Part shown: positions 8,752 to 26,856 of the stretch, in pieces
Position numbering within the stretch: position 1 is the first letter of the stretch
Layout of the letters: every line of letters starts with the position of its first letter
Source of the DNA: a virus
Strand: one strand, 5' to 3'
Length of the DNA: 26,989 bases
UHGV virus genome: UHGV-0205323
Position numbers and translations under genes: made by a program
Notes under the pieces: generated by a model
Seen by the model: the letters and a program-made list of their open reading frames with translations, nothing else
Told to the model about the DNA's origin: nothing
The model's database searches: none

Positions 8752-10413
8752 TTACCTCCATGCAACAATTGTAACTGGTATAGTTACTGACTGACTTGTA
8801 ACTATAAGTCCTGTTGTTGTATCAACAATTCTTATTGCAAACCCGGTAGAATTATAAGTGTCGGCGTATACTTGATATTTAAAAGGAGATGGTACTGCAC
8901 CTGAATGAAAATCAGGATGTATAATTACTTTTGAGGCATAAAAACCAATTGTAACTATACCTCCCGGATTAACTGTTGTTGTCGATATATAATCCGGCGA
9001 GTTGTGTATCTTATCGTTAACCCTTATTATCTTACCATTTCCAATCATGCTAAATATAGTAAATACACCATTTGGGTCATTAAGATAAACTGTTGCATTA
9101 TCTTCTACTCTTATATGACCTGCTGTTCCGTCATCATTAAGCAAGACAGGGTTGTTAATGTAAGTTACTGAATTTCCTCGACATCTAAAATGATAAAAAT
9201 TAGGTCCGTTTGGATTAACTCTATTGAAGTGTGGATTGTTATATGTGACTACTGAAGATGATGCTACCAGTATTGATTGTGTTCCTGCTGTCATTTTTCC
9301 ATCTGTAGAATCCATCTCAAAATTTGGTGAGTCGAAAACAACCCCGGTAGAGTTTGTATCAATATGATGGAAGTAAGAGTTATAAGACCCATCATGCCCC
9401 ATATTAAAATTAATCCACTTAGACCCCTTTACACCACGAAGTCTTAGTGCAAATGCTTTGAAGTTTGCCGCATAACAGTTTATATATGTATTTTCAATTA
9501 TCTGGCCGTTACTCGAAATATCAAAACCAATTCTATTCCCATTTGCTCTGATGTTTGTAAACACATTGGAGAAGTCAGCAGGACCAGCTTTATAACCAAC
9601 ATCAAAGTAGTCTAAATACATATTAGAGAAAGTGCAGTTTACTGTCTTATTTACTCCGGTAAGATCAAGACCAGAACCAGATCCAATTGGTTGACCTCCG
9701 CTAACGGCACCCTCAACAATTAAACCTATATTTGCTATTACTGTTCCTCTTAATTCATTTCCAGATGCAGATATTCCTGAAATCCCGCTAGGTGTTTTTA
9801 TGCTTGATGTAGATAGAGAATCACCAATTAATCCAAAATTATTCTTAAGTGAAATGTTACCTTCCCATTCCCCTGGAGGAACCTTAAGGGTAATGGGAAT
9901 GCTACCAGATGCTATATAATCATTTACCGGGGAAAGATCATTACCGATAACACCAAATCCTCTTATATCTCCTAATCTTCTATAATCAGTAATAGAAATA
10001 AAATCCTGAACGGACTCCCCAGTATCGTAACAAACTAAAGATGCTCCAATATTAGACGCAAGCCTTTTTTCAAGCTGATCCGGGTCGTACTTCAGTACAT
10101 TCGGAAAATAAAACTGCTGCGCACCGTACGCATCATAAACAGCCATAGAATGGCCTTGCACGGTAACGAATTTGGCAATCTGTCCGTTATATACAGGGTA
10201 ACCAGCAGCGTTAATGATGATTGGCTGGGATACAGGAACGTGAGAGCCGTCTTCGTTCTCCACATAAACCTGAATCTGGTTTTCAGGATTTACCGGGTCA
10301 GTGTCAATTTTACCGATATAAATTTTGCCATTGGCTACGGCTTTAAAAGAACGAGCCATAGTGAAGAGTTGCGAAGGCATCGATACGATCACATTGGCTG
10401 TAATGTCTGTCAT
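8752..10413 (-). CDS. tailspike protein: P22 gp9-like N-terminal head-binding domain fused to a divergent receptor-binding domain
   Basis: N-terminal ~110 aa ([11 protein letters not shown]...[22 protein letters not shown]...[13 protein letters not shown]...VLKYDPDQ) closely matches the P22 tailspike head-binding domain as recalled; the remainder is Gly/Asn/Ser/Thr-rich and unlike P22; last gene before the int-proximal end. Confidence 0.85.
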
Positions 10414-10513: not shown

Positions 10514-11404
10514 TCAGTAGTTATGTACTGAAGGAGGTAATTCTTTATTCTTAAGTCTCATCCATGCGGAAAGATTCGCTGGTCCGTCTGGCTCATTAAT
10601 ATCAACATCTCGTGTGTGGTTTATTAAAACGTCTCTCGCCATTCCGATAACATACGAGAACTCATGACCGTAGTCGTAGCATCTTCCGGAATAGTTCGAT
10701 TGAATTTGTTTTAACGCCGGATACAGTTCGCGGAATAATGCCTGTGAACGGTTGGCATAATCCCATAACCATACAAGACTGTTTGCTTCTTTTGCAGAAA
10801 GCTCGTTGGTCTTCTTCTCTTGTTTGCCGATAAACTCGCCTTCAAGCACTACCCTGTGGATGTACTCTACGGCCAGCGGGATTTGTTCAATTGAAAGTTC
10901 ATCAATGCTGTCAATACCAAAACGCTGATGAACCATATTGTATGCATCGTCATAGCGAAGTCCTTTCTTTCCTACCAGCATGTTTACTGCATCGCGTAGC
11001 GGTGTGCGTTCAGCTACTGAAGTTTTACCGCCAATAGCCTTCCTCTCTTGTGTGGTAGTAACCATTGCGTCATATGCACGGATAACCTTCAGCGCAAAGG
11101 CTGCGCTAATCCACATGGCGTAGGAGTAAACAAGCTCCTTGCACACGTAGGTTCCACCATATCTACCTTTCTTAGAAAGGACGGGATTCTTATTCTGCAT
11201 ATCCGCAGAATTAAAAATTTCATTAATCAATTCAATAGTTTCATTTCTACGCATGAAGAAAGCTGGCTGATGTTTTTCCTCCTTTCCAGACGCTACATGA
11301 AGGTCATTAAGCGAGTAACGACCCTCTGAATCCATATGAATCTTGACGTCAGAAATGATGATGCTATTAGTGCAATTTACAGTTGACTTTGCTAAGCTTG
11401 ACAT
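10514..11404 (-). CDS. ant: antirepressor Ant with KilA-N-type N-terminal domain
   Basis: 296-aa ORF downstream of arc on the same strand; N-terminal KilA-N-like pattern ([36 protein letters not shown]); position matches the P22 immI arc-ant arrangement. Confidence 0.65.
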
Positions 11405-11470
11405 ATCAATAATACCTCGTAAGTTTTGTTGATACCGAAGCCCTGACTGTTACAGCAGTTGGGGCTTCAA
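11377..11470 (+). ncRNA. candidate sar-like antisense RNA opposite the arc-ant junction and ant RBS
   Basis: Plus-strand terminator hairpin GAAGCCC...GGGCTTC followed by AACTTTTT (11434-11470) antisense to arc/ant; candidate promoter -35 TTGACG 11343-11348 with -10 TATTAG 11365-11370 inside the ant 5' end; 5' end uncertain. Confidence 0.3.
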
Positions 11471-11640
11471 CTTTTTGCTAGATTACCTTTAGAACTATCC
11501 CGCCTTAAACTATCCACTAACCGCATTACCATCTCGGTATTTATTGAGCGACCATTTTCTTTCGCTGACTTCTCGATTGCTAACTTAACCTCTAATGGGA
11601 TGCGCAAAGGGTACTTTGGTGCGTCTGACTTGACTATCAT
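11467..11640 (-). CDS. arc: Arc-like ribbon-helix-helix repressor
   Basis: 57-aa protein from ATG 11640 with GGAGGT RBS; PKYPLRIPLEVKLAIEKSAKENGRSINTEMVMRLVDSL parallels P22 Arc (PQFNLRWPREVLDLVRKVAEENGRSVNSEIYQRVMESF, recalled). Confidence 0.7.
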   Translation of the reverse strand: MIVKSDAPKYPLRIPLEVKLAIEKSAKENGRSINTEMVMRLVDSLRRDSSKGNLAKS

Positions 11641-11658: not shown

Positions 11659-11675
11659 GGTATAACCGTTATACC
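11659..11675. promoter_or_regulatory. perfect 17-bp palindrome, candidate Mnt-type operator overlapping the ant/arc promoter
   Basis: GGTATAAC-C-GTTATACC is an exact inverted repeat around a central base, located between divergent arc and mnt and about 20 bp upstream of the arc RBS. Confidence 0.5.
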
Positions 11676-11676
11676 A

Positions 11677-11704
11677 TTGTGATCGCAGTGATGCAATAGT
11701 AATA
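11677..11704 (+). promoter_or_regulatory. candidate Pmnt promoter
   Basis: -35 TTGTGA at 11677-11682; -10 TAATAT at 11699-11704 (16-bp spacer); upstream of mnt RBS GGAGGTGG. Confidence 0.3.
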
Positions 11705-11728
11705 TCACCAAAATGCTATGGAGGTGGT

Positions 11729-11965
11729 ATGTCACGCGAAGAGCCGCAAATAAATATCAGGATTTCCAAAGAGTTAAAGGCAAAGGTTAAAGCCAGGGCG
11801 CAACATAACAAGCGTTCCATGAATGCTGAAATAATACAGATTATCGAAGATGCTGTTTGTGGTAGATCGCTTAATAGCAATGAATTTGCTCAGAAAGAGG
11901 CTGACAAATTCAGGGATGCGCTACTTGAAACACTGAAAACCATGTATGGTAAGGATGAAAAATAA
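11729..11965 (+). CDS. mnt: Mnt-like ribbon-helix-helix repressor
   Basis: N-terminus MSREEPQINIRISKELKAKVKARAQHNKRSMNAEIIQIIEDAV parallels P22 Mnt (ARDDPHFNFRMPMEVREKLKFRAEANGRSMNSELLQIV, recalled); divergent from arc-ant. Confidence 0.75.
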   Translation: MSREEPQINIRISKELKAKVKARAQHNKRSMNAEIIQIIEDAVCGRSLNSNEFAQKEADKFRDALLETLKTMYGKDEK

Positions 11966-12501
11966 TGCTGCACACAATTCATTTCTTATGCCCCGTTAAC
12001 ACTGCCACTGTTGGGCAACTTCAGAACCACTGTCTCACCGCATTATCTCAAGGCGCAACTGAATTAAATATCCATATATCAAGTCAGGGAGGGGAAACTG
12101 CCGCTGGTTTTACTGCGTATAACTTTCTTAAGTCACTCCCTGTTACCGTTAGAACTCACAACATAAGCAATGTTGAATCCATAGCTAATATCGTTTTCCT
12201 GGCTGGCTCAGAACGTTTCGCAAACCCATTATCAAGATTCCTGTTACATCCTCTATTATGGGGCTTTGCCACCCCAGCCGCCGACCATGCCAGATTGAGA
12301 GAGTACGGGAAATGCCTCGATAACGATCTTGATCGCTTCGTTGAGACGTTCAATATCGACATCGGAACCCATATTAGGTGGGCATCCCTGATAGCAGACT
12401 CGACCATTTTGGATGCTAACAAGGCTCTTGAGCATGGCATAATTAATTCCATAAAAACTGCAAGGCTGGTATCCAATCAGGCAAACTGGTGGGTTGTTTG
12501 A
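11965..12501 (+). CDS. ClpP-fold serine peptidase-like protein, translationally coupled to mnt
   Basis: ATG overlaps the mnt stop (TAATG); sequence aligns by eye to the E. coli ClpP core (IHISSQGGETAAGFTAYNFL vs [20 protein letters not shown]; Ser in SNVESIANI at the GQAASMGA position; His in FLLHPL at the MIHQP position; C-terminal LEHGIINSI vs VEYGLVDSI). Confidence 0.6.
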   Translation: MLHTIHFLCPVNTATVGQLQNHCLTALSQGATELNIHISSQGGETAAGFTAYNFLKSLPVTVRTHNISNVESIANIVFLAGSERFANPLSRFLLHPLLWGFATPAADHARLREYGKCLDNDLDRFVETFNIDIGTHIRWASLIADSTILDANKALEHGIINSIKTARLVSNQANWWVV

Positions 12502-12578
12502 TGGGTAAATCATGATTACTCCTATGGCAGGAAAGATTCGCATCCTTAAATTTAGTGAGCAAGGATTACCATCACACC

Positions 12579-12764
12579 TTAACAGCCTCCGCGTCCACGA
12601 GTAATTCTATTGCGGATTTGCTTCTTGCGGTGGTTTAAGCTGGAGAGCCTGGCTTCTGCTTCTGATATTTGCGCATCAAGATCTTTAAGCTCAAGATCTG
12701 AAAGTCGCTGGTCAAGCAGGGTTTGGTTCAACTCAATGTTGTTCAGGCGTTCTTCTATGGTCAT
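12579..12764 (-). CDS. small coiled-coil protein (61 aa), hypothetical
   Basis: AAGGAG RBS 5 nt upstream of ATG 12764; heptad-like Leu-rich sequence; start lies immediately downstream of the lipoprotein-gene terminator. Confidence 0.45.
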   Translation of the reverse strand: MTIEERLNNIELNQTLLDQRLSDLELKDLDAQISEAEARLSSLNHRKKQIRNRITRGRGGC

Positions 12765-12772
12765 GATTACTC

Positions 12773-12802
12773 CTTATAAAAAACCCACCTGACGGTGGGT
12801 TT
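12773..12802 (-). terminator. rho-independent terminator downstream of the lipoprotein gene (minus strand)
   Basis: Perfect 9-bp stem AAACCCACC / GGTGGGTTT with 4-nt loop, followed on the minus strand by TTTTTTAT. Confidence 0.6.
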
Positions 12803-12808
12803 CATTTC

Positions 12809-13240
12809 TTAATCTTGCTTTGTAGACGGTATAAGGGATGCGTTTGCCTCTTTTGGCTTCAAGGTATACATCCCACCATTAAATGGATCAACAGCAAGCC
12901 AACCAATTAACCCACCAAACACAAGGTTTCCACCAATATACCAACCATTAGCATTGGCTTTGATTGGCAGGGTAACTGGTTCGTACCCATCCTTCTCCAT
13001 AGTGATCTGGTAGCTCTTTTTGCCAAAATAACTACCATCTGACTTGGCAAGAGTTACTCCTTGCGGGGTCTTACCTTGCGCAACAATCACGCCTGATTCG
13101 TCTTTTACCTTAAAGCTCGCACCGGAAGGATTGCTGTTCACTTGCACAAGCTGTGTTTCGTCACCAACAATAGTTGCGCACCCAGATAACATGATAGCGC
13201 CAGCAACGACGCTAATAATCCTCTTCATATCAATTTCCAT
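12809..13240 (-). CDS. lipoprotein (signal peptide with lipobox LSGC); candidate superinfection-exclusion or surface-modifying moron
   Basis: N-terminus MKRIISVVAGAIMLSG-C has a type II signal peptide and lipobox; Gly-rich C-terminal segment WYIGGNLVFGGLIGWLAVDPFNGGMY; followed by its own terminator; alternative start ATG 13228. Confidence 0.6.
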   Translation of the reverse strand: MEIDMKRIISVVAGAIMLSGCATIVGDETQLVQVNSNPSGASFKVKDESGVIVAQGKTPQGVTLAKSDGSYFGKKSYQITMEKDGYEPVTLPIKANANGWYIGGNLVFGGLIGWLAVDPFNGGMYTLKPKEANASLIPSTKQD

Positions 13241-13323: not shown

Positions 13324-15459
13324 TTACTCCTGTGTCATTCCGCTTAGCGATGCCACAATCCCAGCCCTCGACAAACGCTGGAACTCTTCGTTTCCTAATG
13401 CATCGCGAATTGCTTTTACGGCGGCCTTATTTGCCATAAATCTGCGTTCCGCCGCCGCTAATGCGCCATCACTTGCCCCAACCTTAACTGCCTTTGTTGC
13501 CTCTTGAACAGCCTTTTCAATAGCGTAACGACCACTTCTGGTTGCGGATAATTTCGCTATCGATCCTTTTGCTATCGCATCAATTGCTCCACCTGCAGCG
13601 CCACCAACTATTGCTCCAATAACACCTCCTCCAGAGAACCCTGCGATAGCGCCAGCGGTTGGAAAAGCGCCAGACAATACGCTCTCTAAAACTGGATGAA
13701 GGCCATTCTCAAGAGTGCTAATGGCTGGCATAGAGCGCCCTGTCTGTTCAACATATCGAAGTGGCTTTGTTGCAGCTCTTGCAAGTTCTCCGTATGAACT
13801 TGTAATCCTGCCAAGTTCTGGAGAATATCGACTAATTGCCTTCACGTTTTGTGGGGTAAGAATAGTCGCGATATGCTTAATTCCAGCCTCTTCAGACTTA
13901 CCTCCGCGTACCCCTTGCGATACCGCATCTTGTAATATTGATGCAATTGCTGGCGCGCGTTCCGACTCAGGTAGGGCGCTTATTATTTTATGAAACTGAC
14001 CTGTTCCACTTTTTGCTGAGCCCTGTAACGCCTTAGAGCCATTAGTTACTAACTGATCAGTTGCAAGGTCTCTACCAAACGCTGCTTCAGCCTGTTCTTG
14101 TGCTGTAAATCTTGCTTTTGACAGATCATTAGCTTTTTGCCAGTCATCAAGAAAACCGCCATTTTGAGCCATTATGCGCATATCTTCCGTTGCTGCATCA
14201 CGAAGCTCAGCCATGCGCCTTGCCGTATTTGCCTCACCAGACCTTATATACTTCTGCTCTGCGTCAGCAAGTTTACTTCGCCATGCCTTCATGGCATCAA
14301 ACGTGATTCCTTTTTTACCAGTTTTAGCATAAGCAGATGCGAATTGTTTCATCTCAGGAGTTAGCGGCATGCCAGCCAAAATATCACCCTGAATTGTAGC
14401 GTTCAGGTTTGACATTCTGGCCTTTGCGTCAGGCATCGTGGAGCGGACGCTATCCCATGCAGCCTTTTCTGAATTTTTCATTTTATCAATACTTGCCAAA
14501 ACCCTTTGTTTTATGGCTGCACTTTTTTCTGATGCAGTTCCTGCTTCAGCCCCAAACTCATCCAATGCTGAGTTAAATTTCGACTCTATTTCACTGAATG
14601 CTTTGGTGTGTGCATCCTGTGTAATTCCGGGCTTTGACGCCAGAATCCCCTCCGCCTGAGCAAGACCACGACTACCTGATCTCATGCCAGGAGTTAATGC
14701 GTTGATATCTATTCCAGCAGTATCTGCTGCTTTTGCTATTTCGTCTGACACATTAGCTGACTGTCTGGCAATAATCTCTCTTCCTGTACCAGACTTTGCC
14801 ATTTTCGAAACATCAGCAGCGGAATTTATTGCCCCGCCACCAAGAACTTGAGGTGATTTAGAGGTTAAGATCCTTCCAGCCCCAGAAAGTATCCCCTGAG
14901 TACCAATATTGATACCACCGTTAATGGCAGCATTTTGTGCAAAATCGCCCTCCTGATTTGCAGCATCAGCAAGAGAACCGGCAATCATGTTTCCTGCGGA
15001 ACCGATATCTCCAGCGAGCTTTGCTGTCGCTCCAGCAGCTTTTGCCGCTGTGCCAATTGGCAGGAGATACCCACCAATTGTTTCACCGGCTTGCGCATAA
15101 GGGTCTGTCGGTCTGTCTACTGGACGATAAACATCATCCAAAACCTTGGGTCCACCAAGCCCCTGACTGATTGCATTAATCAGACTTGCGCCGCCCTGCA
15201 ATACGTCAAATGGTATGTTTACCAGACCACGACCAGCCTGTTCTGCAATTTGCCCTGCACTTTGACCACCAGTGAGCCAATCGCCAGCTTGTTGCATCAA
15301 TGATGGTTCTTCCCGTGTTGGTGCATTATTGGCCTGATTAACTGTTTGTTGCTGAACAGCCTGACCAGCAAAATACTCATCAATGGCGGTGCCAATATCT
15401 TCCGTGCTCGTACCATCAGGGAAGGTAAATGTCTTACCGTTTGCAGTTACTTTCATCAT
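13324..15459 (-). CDS. ejection (internal virion) protein, P22 gp16-like
   Basis: 711-aa Ala/Gly-rich protein in the position of P22 gene 16 after gp7 and gp20; start overlaps the gp20 stop; assignment by synteny and composition. Confidence 0.65.
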
Positions 15460-16832
15460 TCCACCGTAAATTGAATGCCTGATTTTGACGTGTAGCTACC
15501 TCCTGCTGATTGCTGAGTAGCTGGCTGTTGCCTTGATGATTTCTTCCCGCTATTACCAACATTAACGTTATATTGCTGGTTGTAATTGTCGGTATATTGC
15601 TGAATGTCGCGCATTGATTGTTGTAGTGCTTCAGGGCTTGAGAAATCAACCTGTGGCATACCTTGAAAATACATCTTTGCTTCTGCAACGGTGTTGATAC
15701 CAGATGCCCCCATGTCTCTGGCTGCTGCAATGCCCTGATTCTGCATCTTTCCTTGGATTCGCTGTGCAGCGTTGTATAGTTTCCTCTGATCACCACCAGA
15801 TGCACGGCTACGAATATCTGCACCAAGAGCAGGAGAACCTGAAGAGCCTGTAATGCCAGTCATGAAGCCAAGATCGTCAATTGATGCGCCAGAAATTGCA
15901 TCAAGATCTTTCTTCATTGCGTAATTCTGCGCGCTTGCTGCCGACGTGGCCGGAGCAGCAATAGAGCCAGCAGGAACGCGAACCATGTTCCCCTCATTGT
16001 CTATACCTTCGTAGAACGCGTTAGCACCAGCACCATGAAGCTTCCCGCCTACGGTTACAGTTCTGCCATCTGCTAACTGAACTGTACGCTCATTATTCCC
16101 AACCGCCCCTTTCATTGATGCTCTCTGCATCGATAAATCCTGACCGCGCATCGTGATATTCTGACCTCGTGCTGTTAGCGCCTCGCCAGCCTGATTGCTG
16201 CGGATTGTCTCTGCAAGTTTTCCGCGATCAATCTCACGCCCAACGATTCTGTCTTGCGCCTGAAAATATTGTTCTGGACCAAGTGCAGCCATTCCAAGGT
16301 GATCAACAAACTCTGTGAAACCTTGTGGATTTTGCTGATACATTTTCGCCACATCCAGAGGGTCTACTCCGGCACGAGTAAGCTCAGATGAGTTGTTCTG
16401 CAACCATGACATCATGGCTTCTGGAGATGAAGCTGCGAGTCTGGCACTTGCTGCCAGTGTACCGACAGTGGAACGCTGGTCTTCATCGACAAATTTCATG
16501 CCGTTTCTTACAGCGTCAAACTGCTCAGGATACTGTGATGCCAGTTTTCGCATTGCATCGCGGTCACCAGATATATATGCATCAGCATAAGCCTGCTGAA
16601 ACTCTTGCTGTCGCTTCTGCTGATCCATCTGCTTATACATATCCATGACAGATGAAATGCCCTGCAAAGCCTGCAAGCCAACGTTATTACGTCCTGAACG
16701 CTCCATCTCGTTATTCTGTCGAATGTATGCAAGCGTGGCGTCTGCATCACTTGCTCTTGGAGCGTTGGAGTTCATGCCGCCTAACCCGGCAAGAAGCGCG
16801 CCTGAATTACCAGCCTGTTGCCATGTAGCCAA
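15456..16832 (-). CDS. ejection (internal virion) protein, P22 gp20-like
   Basis: 458-aa protein between the gp7-like and gp16-like genes; synteny with the P22 7-20-16 ejection cluster. Confidence 0.65.
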
Positions 16833-16844
16833 GAGACACCTCCA

Positions 16845-17498
16845 TTAAAAAAGTGAACCAAGAAGACCGACGCCAGCACCAATTGCTGTACCCCAACCAG
16901 GCATGATTGCAGTACCTGCAGCTGCACCTGCTGCCGCTCCACCCAAGGCGCTCTGAAATCCTGATGGTTTATTCGCATTAGCCGCAGATGCTGCCGCCTG
17001 CTGTTGATACAATTGGCTGACGTTGTTAGCGTAGTTCTGTCCGGCGTTTGCCTGACCTGTAAGAGCACCAAGGCCGATATTTGCCAGATTGTTGTAGTTG
17101 TTCATCTGACCTGACAGCCAGTTTTGACCAAGTGTAGGTGCGATTGCTGCTAACTGGTTTCCTGTTGCTGTAGAGCCTAATCCACCCGTTGCCTCTGCTG
17201 CTGCCAGACTCTGATAGCGCGCCTGCCCTGCAAGGTCTTTATACTGCTGAGAGTTGTAATACTGGTTAAGCGCCTGACCTTGCCCCTGAAGAGAGGAAAG
17301 ATTCTGCAACTGTGATACGTACTGCTGAGCGAGTGGCGTGAACGGTGCAAGGTTTTGCATGTTCGTCTGCCACATTTCACGCTGCAGTTCGATGCCCTTT
17401 TCAGTTGCGCGGGCCTGCTCTTTTGCTCCGCTATCACTGCCACCTTTGCAGTAAACAGCTTTGCTGAGGTGCTTATTGGCAATCTGGAAAATTAACAT
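16845..17498 (-). CDS. ejection (internal virion) protein, P22 gp7-like
   Basis: 217-aa Gln/Ala/Gly-rich protein with hydrophobic C-terminus, following the gp14-like gene; synteny. Confidence 0.65.
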   Translation of the reverse strand: MLIFQIANKHLSKAVYCKGGSDSGAKEQARATEKGIELQREMWQTNMQNLAPFTPLAQQYVSQLQNLSSLQGQGQALNQYYNSQQYKDLAGQARYQSLAAAEATGGLGSTATGNQLAAIAPTLGQNWLSGQMNNYNNLANIGLGALTGQANAGQNYANNVSQLYQQQAAASAANANKPSGFQSALGGAAAGAAAGTAIMPGWGTAIGAGVGLLGSLF

Positions 17499-20970: not shown

Positions 20971-22266
20971 TCACGCAGTCTGGTTAGGCAGACCAACGCC
21001 AATTGCCTCTGGTCGTACAGCACATGCTGAATACCACACAGCAATACGGCACTTACCAGACAGAGTGTTGATATCACCCTGCGTTGCGAAGATGCCGTTA
21101 ACACCAATACCTGGAATGCTGAAGGAAGACGTTTTCATGCCAGCAAACAGTTCATGGGTTACCGGGATCGGCTGAGAAAGCAGACGGATTGAGTCATCAG
21201 CCCAGAACACGTTAGCGGTGGTTGTTGCCACGTTCAGAACGTTTACCGGAGTGGCATCAGCAAGAGAGGTGTTTACGTTAGCGTAAGCCTTCTCTTCTTT
21301 TGTCAATGAAGCGTCATCAAGCGCAATCGGCTTCGGCGTGATTTCGATGTGAGTACCATCGATCACACGGGTGATTGAGAAAGTCGCGTCATCAGTCAGC
21401 ACGTTCTTCGCCATCTGAGACAGGAATTTCACACCAGTGAAGCTGATTTTGTCGCCGCGCTTAAATCCGGTGGTGGAGGATACGGTCACCGTTGCAACAC
21501 GGTTGTCGACGTTCTCTTTGTTACCATCGGTATCAAGGGTGTATGCCTGCGGCTTAAACTTCTGCGCACCAGAAACAGTTACACCAGTAGCGGTTGACTT
21601 GGTAACCGCCGGAAGTTTCGGTGAGCGAAGAATTTCATCAAAGCCAGCAATCTGACGCTGAATAGTACCGTTGCGATACGCTTCTTCAGGAACGCGCCCA
21701 AAGATGTCACCATCTACCAGGTTGCGGCCTGCTTTGCGGTAATCGTCAGGGTTCAGGAAGTAACTGATGCCCATATCGCGGTTTAGCTCACGGGAGAACA
21801 TCAGGCGCTCTGCATCAGACACAAAATCCCAGCCAGACAGGCCAGTAGATGGACCAATTGCGCGGGTATCGTGAACAACAAGCGAGCCCATTTCAGTTGC
21901 CTGTTTGGCAATCGCTGACTCAATGTTATTCGCCAGTTTTTTGGCGGATGCCTGGATGCGGCGACGGTAAGAACGCTCATCACGCAGGTCATCTGCACGA
22001 AGCTCGAAGAAATCGTTATCCGGATCGCCCATGTTGCATTTCACGGAGAGTTCCAGAATCCCGGTTGCGTTGCCAGTTAAATCCCAGCCAGTCTGGGTTG
22101 GCGCTTCCTGCTCAACAGGCATCCACACGGTGTTGCTTGAACGTTGCATGGATTCTGCCGGAGGGGTGTATTTTGTCACTTTGGACGCCATTGGCGTCAG
22201 GTTCTGGACGGTTTCGATGATTTCATCCAGAGCATACGTGACCAGTTGACCTTCATTTAATGCCAT
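20971..22266 (-). CDS. major coat protein, P22 gp5-like
   Basis: 431-aa protein; long stretches match the P22 coat protein as recalled (MALNEGQ...NLTPMA...[21 protein letters not shown], ...[13 protein letters not shown] at the C-terminus). Confidence 0.9.
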
Positions 22267-23177
22267 TATCGAATTCCTTTATTCAGTTGCGCCTTAAGCT
22301 TGCGGTACGTCTCTACATCCCCTTTGTTTGCTGCCGCTTCCATCTGCTTTTCAATCGCAGAGATATTTGCAGCAACAGCGTGTCCCTGAATGGGTTCATC
22401 AGGTAACGGGGCTTCTGAAACAGGCTTGGCTCGAGGCTTGAGAGTTAAACGTTCTGACAGTCGAGTGAGTTCAATCAGCGCGGATTGCCCGTCCATCGCC
22501 AGCAACTGGCGTGTCTTCTCAGGATTAGCACCAAGGTGATACATGAGAGCAGCGGATTTCTCCGGGAAGAGACGCATGATATCGGCACCGACTGCTGGCG
22601 GCACCAATTGCATGAATGCATCCTCTTTCTCCTGATAGTCAGGGATGTTGAGCTTTTCCGCTGCGTCGTAGTGCTTACGGGCTGCCTCGACGTATTGCGC
22701 TGATTGCTGGGTGAACTCCTGAGTTTTGCGCCCCTGCTCGGCGACAGCCTGGCTTCGTGCGTCCATAGCCTTGATCTGCCATTCACTGTTTGCCTGCTGG
22801 AAGGCAGCCAGTGCGCGGCTATGGTCATAGTCGTACTTAGCCAGTGCATCTTCGGAAAGATAATCGTTAGGGTCTGGTTGTTTTGGTAACTCAGGGTTCA
22901 CCCGCAGGTGCTCCGGCAACTCTCCACGCTTAACCGCTTCCATCTGCTGCTCAAGCTCACGCTGGCGTTTGCGTTCGATGCGGCGACGGGCAAATTCAGC
23001 ATTAGTTGCCGGGTCTTGTTTTGGTTTCTCATCGTCTTTCAGGACAATCTCGAAGCCTTCTTCCTGACCTGCGCTGTCGTTGGCATTATCGACAACTAAG
23101 CCATCAGCAGATGCCGCTGCATGATTGCCGGGCAGGGTTAATTCTTCAGAAGCCTGAATGTCGGTGGTTTGGGTCAT
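22266..23177 (-). CDS. scaffolding protein, P22 gp8-like
   Basis: 303-aa acidic coiled-coil-rich protein; near-identical segments to P22 scaffold as recalled ([40 protein letters not shown]); immediately upstream of coat. Confidence 0.9.
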
Positions 23178-23190
23178 GATTAACTCTCTC

Positions 23191-25356
23191 TTATTGAGGT
23201 GTCTCGGCTACTCCGCCGGAGGGGATTTGAACTTGACGCATAAGATTCGCGAAATCCATGCGTTGTGAATGAGTCTGGTCTGCATCTTTAAGAAGCAGCT
23301 CAGCGTTAGCACGAGCATCTTTGCTGCGCTGTTGCTGGAATTGACCTACGAGCTTGAGGTACTCACGCAGTTCTGCCTGCTTGTCGAGGTCCATATTGTT
23401 GAAGATTTCCGCAATCTTCGCGGCGTTGAGTTGGTTTTGGGCTTCAACCTTGGCGGCTTCAACCTGAATCTGCGCCTGTTGGTTCTCTGCCTTGAGCAAT
23501 TCAGCCTGACCTTGCAGAAGGATACCCTGCGCCTGAATTTGCTCTGCTGATGGCTGCTGCGGCTGCTGTTGAGCCTGCTGTACCATCTCCATCTCTTCAG
23601 GTGTTTCTGGCTTCTTCAGCCCCATCATCACCAGTTGCTTGTTCGCGTACTCTCGCATCATCTCGACGCCTTTACCGTCAAGCAACGTGAAGTATTGCAG
23701 CATCAGCATCTGGAACTCTGGAGTACCTTGCGGAACCTTGGTGAGCAACTCCTGAATCTCTGCGCGATTCTGTTCCTTCATGCTCTGGAAGGATGGCCCA
23801 ACGTCTGTATAGCACTCATAGCGACCGCGAATGTCGTTGAGTGTTACCACATTGCCGGACTGGTAATCGACAACTTGCGCATAGAGTTGAACGTCTTTCT
23901 CGCTTCCATCTTCAAGTGTCAGCGTTACATGACGAGGAACGTCATAAATATCGTTGACCATTGAGGCATAAATCTCGCCATCACGTCGCATTGCGGTAGC
24001 CAGGTTATCCTGAAACACGTATGTCTCAAGGTCTGCCCGCATGTTCAGTTGATTGACGGTATCGAAAGCGACCTGAGAGTTTGCTGCCTGCGCATCCACA
24101 CCAAGACTAGCCACCTCTTTCACTGCGTTGGTGGCAGCCTCAAGCATGTAAGCGTTGGCTTGCGGCACTTCAGGATTTTCCATGTAGGAGATTGGACCAA
24201 TCGGCAGGTCGTTACCGTTTTCATCGGTCTTGTTCTGCAGATAGTACGGATAGTCATCATTTCCACCGTACATGTATTCGTAGCCTTCGATTTGCTCAGG
24301 GAAGAAGGTCGGTTTCTTCTTCGGTGAACGAGCAACAATATCGGCGTTGAATGACATGATCATGTTACGAAGGCGCTGACCGTCTTTCGTCAGCCTTACC
24401 ACTCCTTCGTAGCACTCCTTGTCACCAGCGAATGACCATTCGCCATACACTGGAACGATTGGAATATGCTCTCCGGCTATCTTCTCGCGGTCTTTCAGTA
24501 TCTGCGTGCAGGTGATGATCGACTTATACACACGCCGACGCTTCACCTTGCGCTCTGCTACCTTAATGAATCCACGATTAGCCAGGTCGTCGATGACGTC
24601 TTTGATATCCTGCTGGTAATAGCTGACCGGCTCACCTGTCAGCGGGTCGCGGTAGATGAAGACTTTCTCTTTCTTCTCTTCTACCTCGTAATACTCAGCG
24701 ACGTAGACGACATCATTCGATACCCACGGAAACAGCCATGTGTCGTTCGGATTCTGGAAAGATGGCAGGGTGTCAGGATCAATACCGTAATCCTCTGCGA
24801 ACTCTTTCCAGCCATTGCGTGACAAAGCGTTAATCACCGTGCAGTGCTTAGCGTCGCTCTTATCCATCTGCTTGCTGTTGGCGTCCCATATGACGTGTGA
24901 GCAGGCTTCATGAATTGGCAGGCGTCGAATTACCTGATTGTTGCTTGTTGGATCGTTGTCTTCGTACTGCGTGACCAGACGCCATGCACCAACGCCTGAC
25001 TCTATCTGCTCACGAACGCCAACGTTAACGGCAATTTTTGCCGTATTATGGCGCATATCAGTACGATACATCCCCATCAGCACATCGGCAGCATCAGGAT
25101 TAGCGCCGTCTTTTGGTCTGAAGAGAACATCGATAGGGTTCCTGCGCATCTCTGCGACCAGCTTCCTGACCACCGGGCGAACAACATCGAATTGTCCGCG
25201 ATATTGCAGGGTGGTGTAGTTTGATAGCCAGTCATCCCATTGCGACACTCGGCTAAAATACAGGTCATTTGTCGCCTCGGTTCTGGCTTCATCGCTCGCC
25301 ATCCAGTCTGCGTCAAACTTACACAGAATGGAATTGAGTCTGTTTTCGTCGGCCAT
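23191..25356 (-). CDS. portal protein, P22 gp1-like
   Basis: 721-aa protein between terminase large subunit and scaffold; size and Gln-rich C-terminal barrel-like tail consistent with P22 portal. Confidence 0.9.
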
Positions 25357-26856
25357 TTAAGTTCTCCGTGCGATGGGCCTGATTGGGGCTGGTATCTTTT
25401 TCTCTTTTGGCTTTTTGATGTCGCGCATCATTTTTGCGAAGCGGCGCATCATGTATGCATAGCGAACGGCGGATAGCACGTCGTCGTTAAGCTTGACGAT
25501 TTTCCCGTTTTCATCACGGTGATAGAGGCGGAACTCCTCAAAGAATGGCTCACAGGTGTTGAATACTTTGAAGCGACCGTCGAGCATCATGTCTCGCAAT
25601 TCAGTGATGCCAGGCTCAACAGCGTTACCGCCATCAGGCCATGTCGCATGCTCCTGCAACATCATAAATCCAGCGTCCGCATACTGCCCTTTGAGCTGCT
25701 CACCGCCGCCCTTCTCGTGCTGGTTTCCGTCATGAGGCCATGCGGTTGGCACTTTATGCGCCCATGGTTTAACAGCTCCCCACGCCTGAACGGCTGTCTT
25801 TTCTTTCGCCTTCCAAACGCGTGAAAGGTAGATTATGTCTGCGTCCTTATCCCACCAAAGCTGAACCTGCGCCTGCGGGTGATCCCATCCGAAATCCATA
25901 CCGCCAATTACGTAGAAGTGATCAGGACACTCGAACGGCTGACACTTAATCGTCTCTTCCGGTATCTGGAAGATTCGACCACTACCCATCGTAGGAATAC
26001 CGCGAGCTCGAGCCTCTCTCTCATGCTCTGGATAGGATGCGATGATTTGCTCTTTCTGCTCATCGGTATAGTGCTCAGCGTCATAGATGGTCATGTTGAC
26101 CACTTTCTGCGACTTGCTGGGATTCTTCAGGAACTTGGTAACAACGTCAGACATCCCCATCAGCGGGGTAAACGTCAGAATTGAGAATTGCCCGTATTTG
26201 TTGGTACGGGTAAGACCTTCGCCATAAATGCTGTATGGTGGCTCTTCGTCAAACCACACGCCGTGGATTGTATCACCCTGCCAGCGAGCACGGCCTTGCG
26301 AGTATGGTTTGAAGTAGCAGATTGAAATGCCATCTTCAACGCCATCTGCCGTGTGATGCTTAACCAGAAGGTGATCAACAAGGTTCGGAAAGAAAGGAGA
26401 CTTCTTCCAGCTAATGATGTCCTCTTTCGGTATTGAACCGTAGCCCGGCTCATCATTCTCTTCAATACGACCGCACAGGATGCGTTGAGTCGTTTTGGTT
26501 ACCGTCTCGTTTGTCTCGCCGCCAATCCAGAAGACAACAGGCTCATAGAAACGCTTACCTTTCCACTCCCCACCATATTTACCATCAGCCGGATAGCCTT
26601 TTGTTCCCGGATAACGCCCGGTAAGGTGAAACGCGACTTCAGCAGCCCCAGTAAATGACTTACCAAGCTGGTTACCAGCCATAAAACAGCGCTCTGGATA
26701 GTCATGCCCGGCGTCGATGAACTCACGCTGTTTGCTGTATGGCGTAAATTCATATAGCAGGTGTGTGTTCCGGTAGTTCTCTTCTTCTTCGAGTAGCTCG
26801 AGCAATTCGATTTGCTCTTCGTCGCTCAGGTTATCAAGAATCGCGTCCAGTTCCAC
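25357..26856 (-). CDS. terminase large subunit, P22 gp2-like
   Basis: 499-aa protein with Walker A-like GNQLGKS near the N-terminus; position upstream of portal; GTG start with AAGGAG RBS. Confidence 0.9.

Follow-up and report, generated by a model that had tools for sequence, protein, structure and literature searches.

The window analysed here, a 26,989-nt stretch of UHGV virus genome UHGV-0205323, is a P22-like (Lederbergvirus-type) prophage in which mnt, the gene of the maintenance repressor, overlaps the gene of a 178-aa protein of the ClpP fold, here called clp. We propose, with a probability of about 0.6, that clp encodes an accessory atypical ClpP subunit of the type represented by Pseudomonas plecoglossicida ClpP1 (PpClpP1), expressed in the lysogen and carried by the phage as a moron. 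The identity of the protein and the operon arrangement of its gene, which form two parts of this proposal, are well supported; the further step of hetero-oligomer formation with host ClpP is drawn from a homologue with 38–40% identity and is tentative. Atypical ClpP paralogues are already known, and a phage-mobilised form wired to a maintenance repressor is not described.

11965–12501, + strand: short, N-terminally truncated ClpP-like serine peptidase (178 aa) of the PpClpP1 type, identified by profile, structure and alignment
12178–12180, + strand: codon TCC of Ser72, the candidate nucleophile, aligned with S97 of Escherichia coli ClpP and S73 of PpClpP1
12247–12249, + strand: codon CAT of His95, the candidate general base, aligned with H122 of E. 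coli ClpP and H96 of PpClpP1
12400–12402, + strand: codon of Ser146, at the canonical catalytic Asp position, aligned with D171 of E. coli ClpP and P151 of PpClpP1

Fold, catalytic residues and relatives of the 178-aa protein

A ClpP fold had been suggested by an earlier inspection of the letters and open reading frames (the sequence-only reading), and profile search and structure prediction established that the product of clp is a genuine ClpP-fold protein. It matched the Pfam family CLP_protease (PF00574) with an E-value of 4.3e-12 and 46.7 bits against a cutoff of 20.2, which placed it in the S14 superfamily. The best structural match was PDB 9UXT, the structure of PpClpP1, with an E-value of 4.6e-35 and an alignment of residues 3–175 with 4–179, that is, over the full length. 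The AlphaFold2 model had a predicted local distance difference test score (pLDDT) of 88.8 and a chain that began directly at strand 1, and Foldseek returned template modelling (TM) scores of 0.87 to 9UXT and about 0.77–0.78 to canonical ClpPs. Against the NCBIfam ClpP models the protein scored 22–41 bits, far from the 228–361 bits at which canonical equivalogs are called. An exhaustive search of representative sequences yielded 525 clusters at E<1e-10, mostly of 180–190 aa, of which only eight lay at E<1e-30; this places it in a small subfamily of a wide group of ClpP-like proteins, most of which are of similar length. The E. coli copies are labelled “ATP-dependent Clp protease proteolytic subunit”, an annotation that we regard as misleading, as is the label “head maturation protease” given to one phage copy.

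For the residue alignment, the E. coli ClpP sequence was confirmed to be identical to 1TYF. Ser72 and His95 were invariant in the family alignments A1, A2 and A3, which comprised 19–21 members, and the Gly-Gly oxyanion motif (G42-G43) was likewise invariant in the family. The sequence-only reading had seen the Ser and His contexts and the C-terminal Asp region as all retained; the first two were indeed kept, but the Asp is replaced by Ser146. Across the family this position was occupied by S, A or P, so that the catalytic-Asp triad of canonical ClpP is lacking, and the adjacent Asp145 was variable as well (D/N/Q/K/S/A).

Relative to canonical E. coli ClpP (1TYF), the protein had the same fold (TM about 0.77) with aligned Ser, His and Gly-Gly residues, but shared just 26% identity with it. 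Its M1 aligned with K25 of the mature protein; the first 24 residues are absent, which removes the axial gating loop and the greater part of helix A. Y60, Y62 and F82 of E. coli ClpP, which we take to be the residues that line the docking pocket for ClpX and acyldepsipeptides (ADEPs), aligned with N35, H37 and S57. Canonical ClpP is thus not matched either in its N-terminal axial loops and helix A or in its IGF/LGF-loop docking pocket, and the observation from sequence that no partner ATPase accompanies the gene was correct. A C-terminal N-W-W-V(-x-C) motif, found here at residues 175–178 (12487–12498), was conserved in the family, with Trp175 nearly invariant. In ClpP the chain ends close to the surface on which the ATPase and ADEPs dock, so that the conserved tail might occupy the docking pocket.

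The characterised relative, PpClpP1 (9UXT), is an N-terminally truncated ClpP with a Ser-His-Pro arrangement that assembles into a homo-14-mer with a pore of 42.7 Å (PMC12900304). Its peptidase activity is low and depends on Ser and His, the third residue being dispensable, and it does not bind ClpX; in combination with canonical ClpP it forms a hetero-14-mer that is more active and works with ClpX (PMC12900304). The window protein shares with PpClpP1 38–40% identity over the full length, a TM score of 0.87, a similar size (178 versus 183 aa), the same truncation of axial loop and helix A, an invariant Ser/His pair, a non-acidic residue at the Asp position and a conserved C-terminal Trp, and on these grounds it is a member of the PpClpP1-type short atypical ClpPs. 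The two proteins differ at the third triad position, which is Pro in PpClpP1 and Ser here, and in their location; unlike the phage-borne gene of the window, the PpClpP1 gene is chromosomal and conserved across Pseudomonas and Azotobacter. Oligomeric state, hetero-14-mer formation and enzyme activity are known for PpClpP1 only.

The genes of the PpClpP1 clade (L092–L096, on Pseudomonas chromosomes) were flanked by genes for KGG-repeat stress proteins and DUF6555. These flanks hint at a stress or stationary-phase regulon, which is absent from the discussion in the PpClpP1 paper. The possibility that PpClpP1 itself is prophage-borne was rejected on the basis of this chromosomal position beside KGG and DUF6555 genes.

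Several other alternative ClpPs join canonical ClpP, including P. aeruginosa ClpP2, Listeria ClpP1, Mycobacterium ClpP1P2 and the Streptomyces ClpP of ADEP resistance, and such subunits have been termed a “protease rheostat” (PMC13056064, PMC12607617). The window protein would share with them the character of an atypical second ClpP that does not bind an unfoldase alone and modulates the housekeeping enzyme. Those proteins are host paralogues under host regulation, and there is no report of any of them as a prophage moron or as cotranscribed with a phage repressor. The statement in the sequence-only reading that this is not a described system was accordingly right for the gene, on which no paper was found in the literature, but not for its class, which has a characterised member in PpClpP1 (9UXT, PMC12900304); nor does it hold for the idea of alternative ClpP subunits that retune Clp proteolysis, which is an established concept.

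The mnt–clp transcription unit and the immI region

The features that tie clp to mnt are given below.

11951–11967, + strand: coupling junction, with a Shine-Dalgarno-like AAGGA at 11951–11955, the mnt TAA at 11963–11965 and the clp ATG at 11965–11967
11884–12523, + strand: conserved mosaic block containing the last 13–27 mnt codons, clp and the 22 bp 3′ of clp, from nucleotide alignments
11677–11705, + strand: candidate mnt promoter (Pmnt), TTGTGA, 17 nt, TAATAT, found by eye, matching at 8 of 12 positions and below the scan threshold
12781–12802, no strand assigned: GC-rich hairpin AAACCCACCTGACGGTGGGTTT with a T-run on the - strand, from a terminator scan

The mnt stop and the clp start overlap as TAATG, the final A of TAA serving as the first base of ATG, and the AAGGA motif lies 10 nt upstream of the clp start. 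This overlap, already read directly in the sequence, was embedded in a junction, AAGGAT(G/A)A(A/T)AAATAATG, that 37 of 38 related E. coli and Pectobacterium loci had retained. The exception (L026) had a 1-nt deletion in the junction that shifts the mnt frame. Such conservation is well beyond chance.

Nucleotide alignments showed that clp is inherited as a unit together with the 3′ end of mnt. The conserved block began at 11884 or 11925, inside mnt, and ended at 12516 or 12523, with differing flanks on either side; E. coli phages and prophages matched it at 97–98% nucleotide identity, and Pectobacterium at 76%. The same block occurred beside very different mnt N-termini and differing arc and ant alleles.

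P22 has a hairpin homologous to that at 12781–12802, and there it overlaps the mnt stop codon, whereas in phage phiv205-1 it lies directly 3′ of clp. In the window, a 238-bp indel (12524–12760) separates the clp block from the hairpin. Given that the block starts inside mnt and that the hairpin is homologous to that of P22, clp is an insertion into the mnt transcription unit. From this arrangement we infer strongly that mnt and clp are co-transcribed; coexpression of the two, as proposed from the overlap, is very probable, with clp lying 3′ of mnt and ahead of the hairpin whose P22 counterpart overlaps the mnt stop codon. The hairpin is likely to mark the end of the mnt–clp transcript and, since AAACCCACCTGACGGTGGGTTT has a T-run on the - strand as well, may terminate transcripts of both directions. 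Scans for sigma-70 promoters in the window and in three loci with stand-alone clp copies returned sites no more numerous than in shuffled sequence.

The slot itself has a precedent in P22, where the mnt transcript also carries an extra open reading frame, orf59a, ahead of the annotated terminator, and where sieA, unlike orf59a, has its own promoter. Like the P22 mnt–orf59a operon and the sieA moron, clp lies on the mnt strand, in the interval from mnt to ejection gene 16; the product of orf59a is a 59-aa protein and not a peptidase. The 238-bp indel, present in some related prophages and absent from others, carries a gene on the - strand (12579–12764) for a 61-aa coiled-coil protein (PHROG 7586, E=7e-42).

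The upstream gene was confirmed as mnt, as had been proposed, both by its similarity to P22 Mnt (35% identity over the full length, E=3e-18) and by its surroundings, a complete immI region located between gene 16 and the tailspike gene and consisting of ant, sar, arc, an 88-bp control region and mnt.

11729–11965, + strand: mnt, Mnt-like ribbon-helix-helix (RHH) maintenance repressor, 78 aa (Pfam Arc, E=6.8e-13)
11659–11675, no strand assigned: 17-bp perfect palindrome GGTATAACCGTTATACC between arc and mnt, centred at 11667, from an inverted-repeat search
11467–11640, - strand: arc, 57 aa from an ATG preceded by GGAGG (Pfam Arc, E=2.5e-12)
11406–11472, + strand: sar antisense RNA (Rfam RF00262, 67.4 bits against a gathering threshold of 43, E=3.9e-13)
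10514–11404, - strand: ant, antirepressor with KilA-N and P22_AR_C domains (Pfam)

As in P22, mnt is divergent from arc–ant, and Arc was 40% identical to P22 Arc. Detection of the sar RNA completed the regulatory set. The palindrome GGTATAACCGTTATACC, which extends to 21-nt arms at 76% complementarity, corresponds in position to the P22 operator region and is likely a candidate operator for Mnt or Arc. The region therefore contains what defines P22 immI, namely a Mnt homologue divergent from arc–ant, a sar RNA and an operator palindrome.

In the remainder of the window, the tailspike gene (8752–10413) is followed by the integrase gene, and the ejection genes gp7 and gp20 and an open reading frame at the gp16 position lie at 13324–17498; the latter had no Pfam match and was homologous to gp16-family proteins in related loci. 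The late genes are on the - strand, with terminase, P22 portal, scaffold and coat genes contiguous at 20971–26856. Directly after ejection gene 16 is a gene for a predicted 143-aa lipoprotein (12809–13240, - strand; PHROG 6823, E=2.5e-86) in which a weak PEGA domain and a match to a Cor-like signal peptide were detected; it is a candidate exclusion lipoprotein.

Distribution and selection of clp

Copies of clp were found in 128 of 5426 complete E. coli genomes at 98.8–100% nucleotide identity, with at least 80% of the length covered in 126, and in six deposited phage genomes, one of which labels the gene “head maturation protease”. The ratio of nonsynonymous to synonymous substitution rates (dN/dS) was about 0.08, indicating strong purifying selection; this value comes from three unsaturated pairs, dS being saturated for most pairs. 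Rare inactivated copies were also present, one split by an insertion of ~1.3 kb (L041, 4147–5882) and one frameshifted (L038, 1403–1938).

Close relatives of the gene were consistently linked to mnt. In all 35 viral contigs and phage records with a copy at least 79% identical, mnt was immediately upstream, as it was in Pectobacterium, and a Providencia copy (65% identity) had mnt upstream with a 29-bp spacer. The lambdoid siphophage PhiR12_1 (L002, 5066–7078) carried the whole ant–arc–mnt–clp cassette between tail genes L and K. In two further loci (L022, 2017–2567; L023, 4219–5053), two or three tandem mnt-like RHH genes preceded clp.

Conservation of the mnt–clp pair, which had been put forward as a check on the sequence-only reading, accordingly held for the P22-like prophages of E. 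coli, Pectobacterium and Providencia but not for relatives with at most 74% identity, in which clp was stand-alone and antisense to flanking lytic genes, with no RHH gene nearby. Lambdoid prophages of E. coli and of Klebsiella-type hosts had the stand-alone copy between the lysis cassette and the terminase genes, and Proteus had it between gene N and early-left genes. In prophages of the myovirus type it was embedded in clusters of tail and baseplate genes: its neighbours were tail-fibre and lysis genes in a Chromobacterium prophage whose tail genes are of the myovirus type, and tail genes in a Pantoea Mu-like prophage. Overall, at least five different insertion contexts were recorded in lambdoid, P22-like and myovirus-type prophages, and all enterobacterial contexts examined were prophages. 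Solitary placement antisense to lytic genes is what marks a moron that consists of one gene and is expressed in the prophage state. No consistent partner gene was found across these contexts. A fixed upstream neighbour, encoding a 182-aa protein (PHROG 5483), was found in one E. coli subtype only; in this subtype (52–54% identity; L099, 2219–2767, and L064–L071) it was always 78 bp upstream on the same strand, and the pair sat between HNH/terminase genes and lysis genes.

Proposed role and competing explanations

The proposal of an accessory ClpP subunit can be set out as follows. In the P22-like lineage, clp would have entered the space that separates mnt from its usual 3′ hairpin; having no promoter of its own, it would depend on Pmnt for transcription and on coupling to mnt for translation, and the ClpP-like protein would consequently be made whenever the prophage is maintained. 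The product keeps the barrel subunit of ClpP, together with the catalytic pair Ser72-His95 and the Gly-Gly of the oxyanion site, but the catalytic Asp is missing, as are the axial gate at the N-terminus and the aromatic pocket for ClpX/ClpA, and the protein would consequently have no unfoldase drive on its own. Heptameric rings of the protein may form a weakly active, wide-pore homo-14-mer or may stack on a ring of host ClpP, the latter option being the more probable one by analogy with PpClpP1 and the literature on alternative ClpPs. The outcome would be a change in the amount, capping or cleavage pattern of Clp (ClpXP/ClpAP) proteolysis in the lysogen, and the resident phage would in this way probably alter host protein degradation through clp. 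The possible pay-off could lie in exclusion of other phages, in stabilisation of lysogeny or in host fitness.

Several points weigh against this proposal. Expression of clp is predicted from operon anatomy, simple promoter scans being uninformative. The biochemically studied homologue is a chromosomal Pseudomonas gene beside stress genes and only 38–40% identical, a fit of the window protein to E. coli ClpP rings is presumed from PpClpP1, and the third catalytic position differs between the two. The immI linkage in three genera, together with the cassette transfer to a lambdoid phage, could also suggest a role tied to immI in place of that of a generic moron.

We consider it unlikely, though worth weighing, that clp encodes an effector of superinfection exclusion or abortive infection, as suggested in the sequence-only reading. 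On this explanation an open-pore, ATP-independent peptidase, acting alone or by deregulating host Clp, would degrade unfolded proteins of incoming phages, for example ejection or early proteins, and would thereby protect the lysogen. Its attraction lies in expression alongside the maintenance repressor from a region that houses sieA in P22, in the classical moron slot, antisense to lytic genes, that every stand-alone copy occupies, in the unusually wide pore of the homologue PpClpP1, and in the variable neighbour genes, which include the lipoprotein with the Cor-like signal peptide. Against it, PADLOC-DB v2 returned no family at E<=1 for the peptidase and PADLOC gave no match for its neighbours, no paper on such an activity and no phenotype were found in the literature, the peptidase activity of PpClpP1 is low, and the sister clade is an ordinary chromosomal gene in Pseudomonas. 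A homologue of SieA was also considered and was rejected for lack of similarity (BLASTP against P22 SieA, E=18).

A rather improbable explanation is that the peptidase is an accessory of immI itself, removing leaky or incoming Ant or another immI product and so acting as a post-translational lock beside Mnt, Arc and sar. The linkage of mnt and clp in P22-like prophages of E. coli, Pectobacterium and Providencia and the joint movement of the entire ant–arc–mnt–clp cassette into a lambdoid siphophage would fit such a function, and the clp block at 97–98% identity beside very different mnt, arc and ant alleles has been counted in its favour. The same diversity of ant alleles beside an almost invariant clp, however, argues against a specific substrate, and relatives at 52–74% identity reside in prophages with no mnt, arc or ant nearby.

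An RHH gene overlapping a downstream enzyme gene is the typical layout of a type II toxin–antitoxin (TA) system, with Mnt in this case as the antitoxin controlling a toxic protease. This explanation, and with it the suggestion of a toxin-like or Mnt-dependent pair or an obligate two-component system, is very unlikely and is largely refuted by the distribution of the gene: the peptidase is stand-alone in most lineages, without the conserved pairing expected of type II TA, and the RHH protein is a true Mnt, encoded beside arc, sar and ant. Overproduction of PpClpP1 in E. coli and its deletion in Pseudomonas were reported without TA behaviour (PMC12900304).

The least credible explanation follows the annotation in phage phiv205-1 and takes the protein for a ClpP-related prohead (head maturation) protease that is misplaced or decaying. 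It draws on membership of the same superfamily, the best PHROG match (PHROG 94 “head maturation protease”, E=5e-21), the NCBIfam model Clp_rel_HeadMat (49.7 bits) and the GenBank annotation, but was rejected on context, strand and family cutoff, the distance to the head genes having been raised already in the sequence-only reading: the score is far under the NF045542 cutoff of 120, the gene lies outside the head module, on the strand opposite to the late genes and ~8.5 kb away, the complete P22-type module at 20971–26856 is contiguous with no protease gene or protease slot among its members, P22 capsids mature without proteolysis, and a dN/dS of 0.08 is not that of a decaying gene.

A broader interpretation, which we hold to be improbable, is that temperate phages of Enterobacterales spread a “viral ClpP”, a gate-less Ser-His ring that would either dock on host ClpP and reprogramme proteolysis in the lysogen or act alone as an unregulated peptidase. 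It would constitute a new kind of prophage-encoded immunity, or of lysogeny lock, exerted through the protease machinery of the host. If this were true, the immI circuit would gain a fourth layer in the mnt-coupled copy.

Alternative ClpP subunits have begun to be recognised as tuners of bacterial proteolysis, virulence and drug sensitivity, and the examples studied are all host genes. One class of atypical ClpP is mobile on temperate phages, and its P22-like carriers have it wired directly to the repressor that maintains lysogeny. If the accessory-subunit proposal is right and the protein assembles with host ClpP, carriage of the prophage would alter Clp-dependent regulation in ~2% of E. coli strains, pathogenic lineages among them; the targets could include RpoS, SOS fragments and phage proteins, and responses to ClpP-targeting antibiotics would be affected. 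The P22 immI paradigm, for its part, gains an unstudied component.

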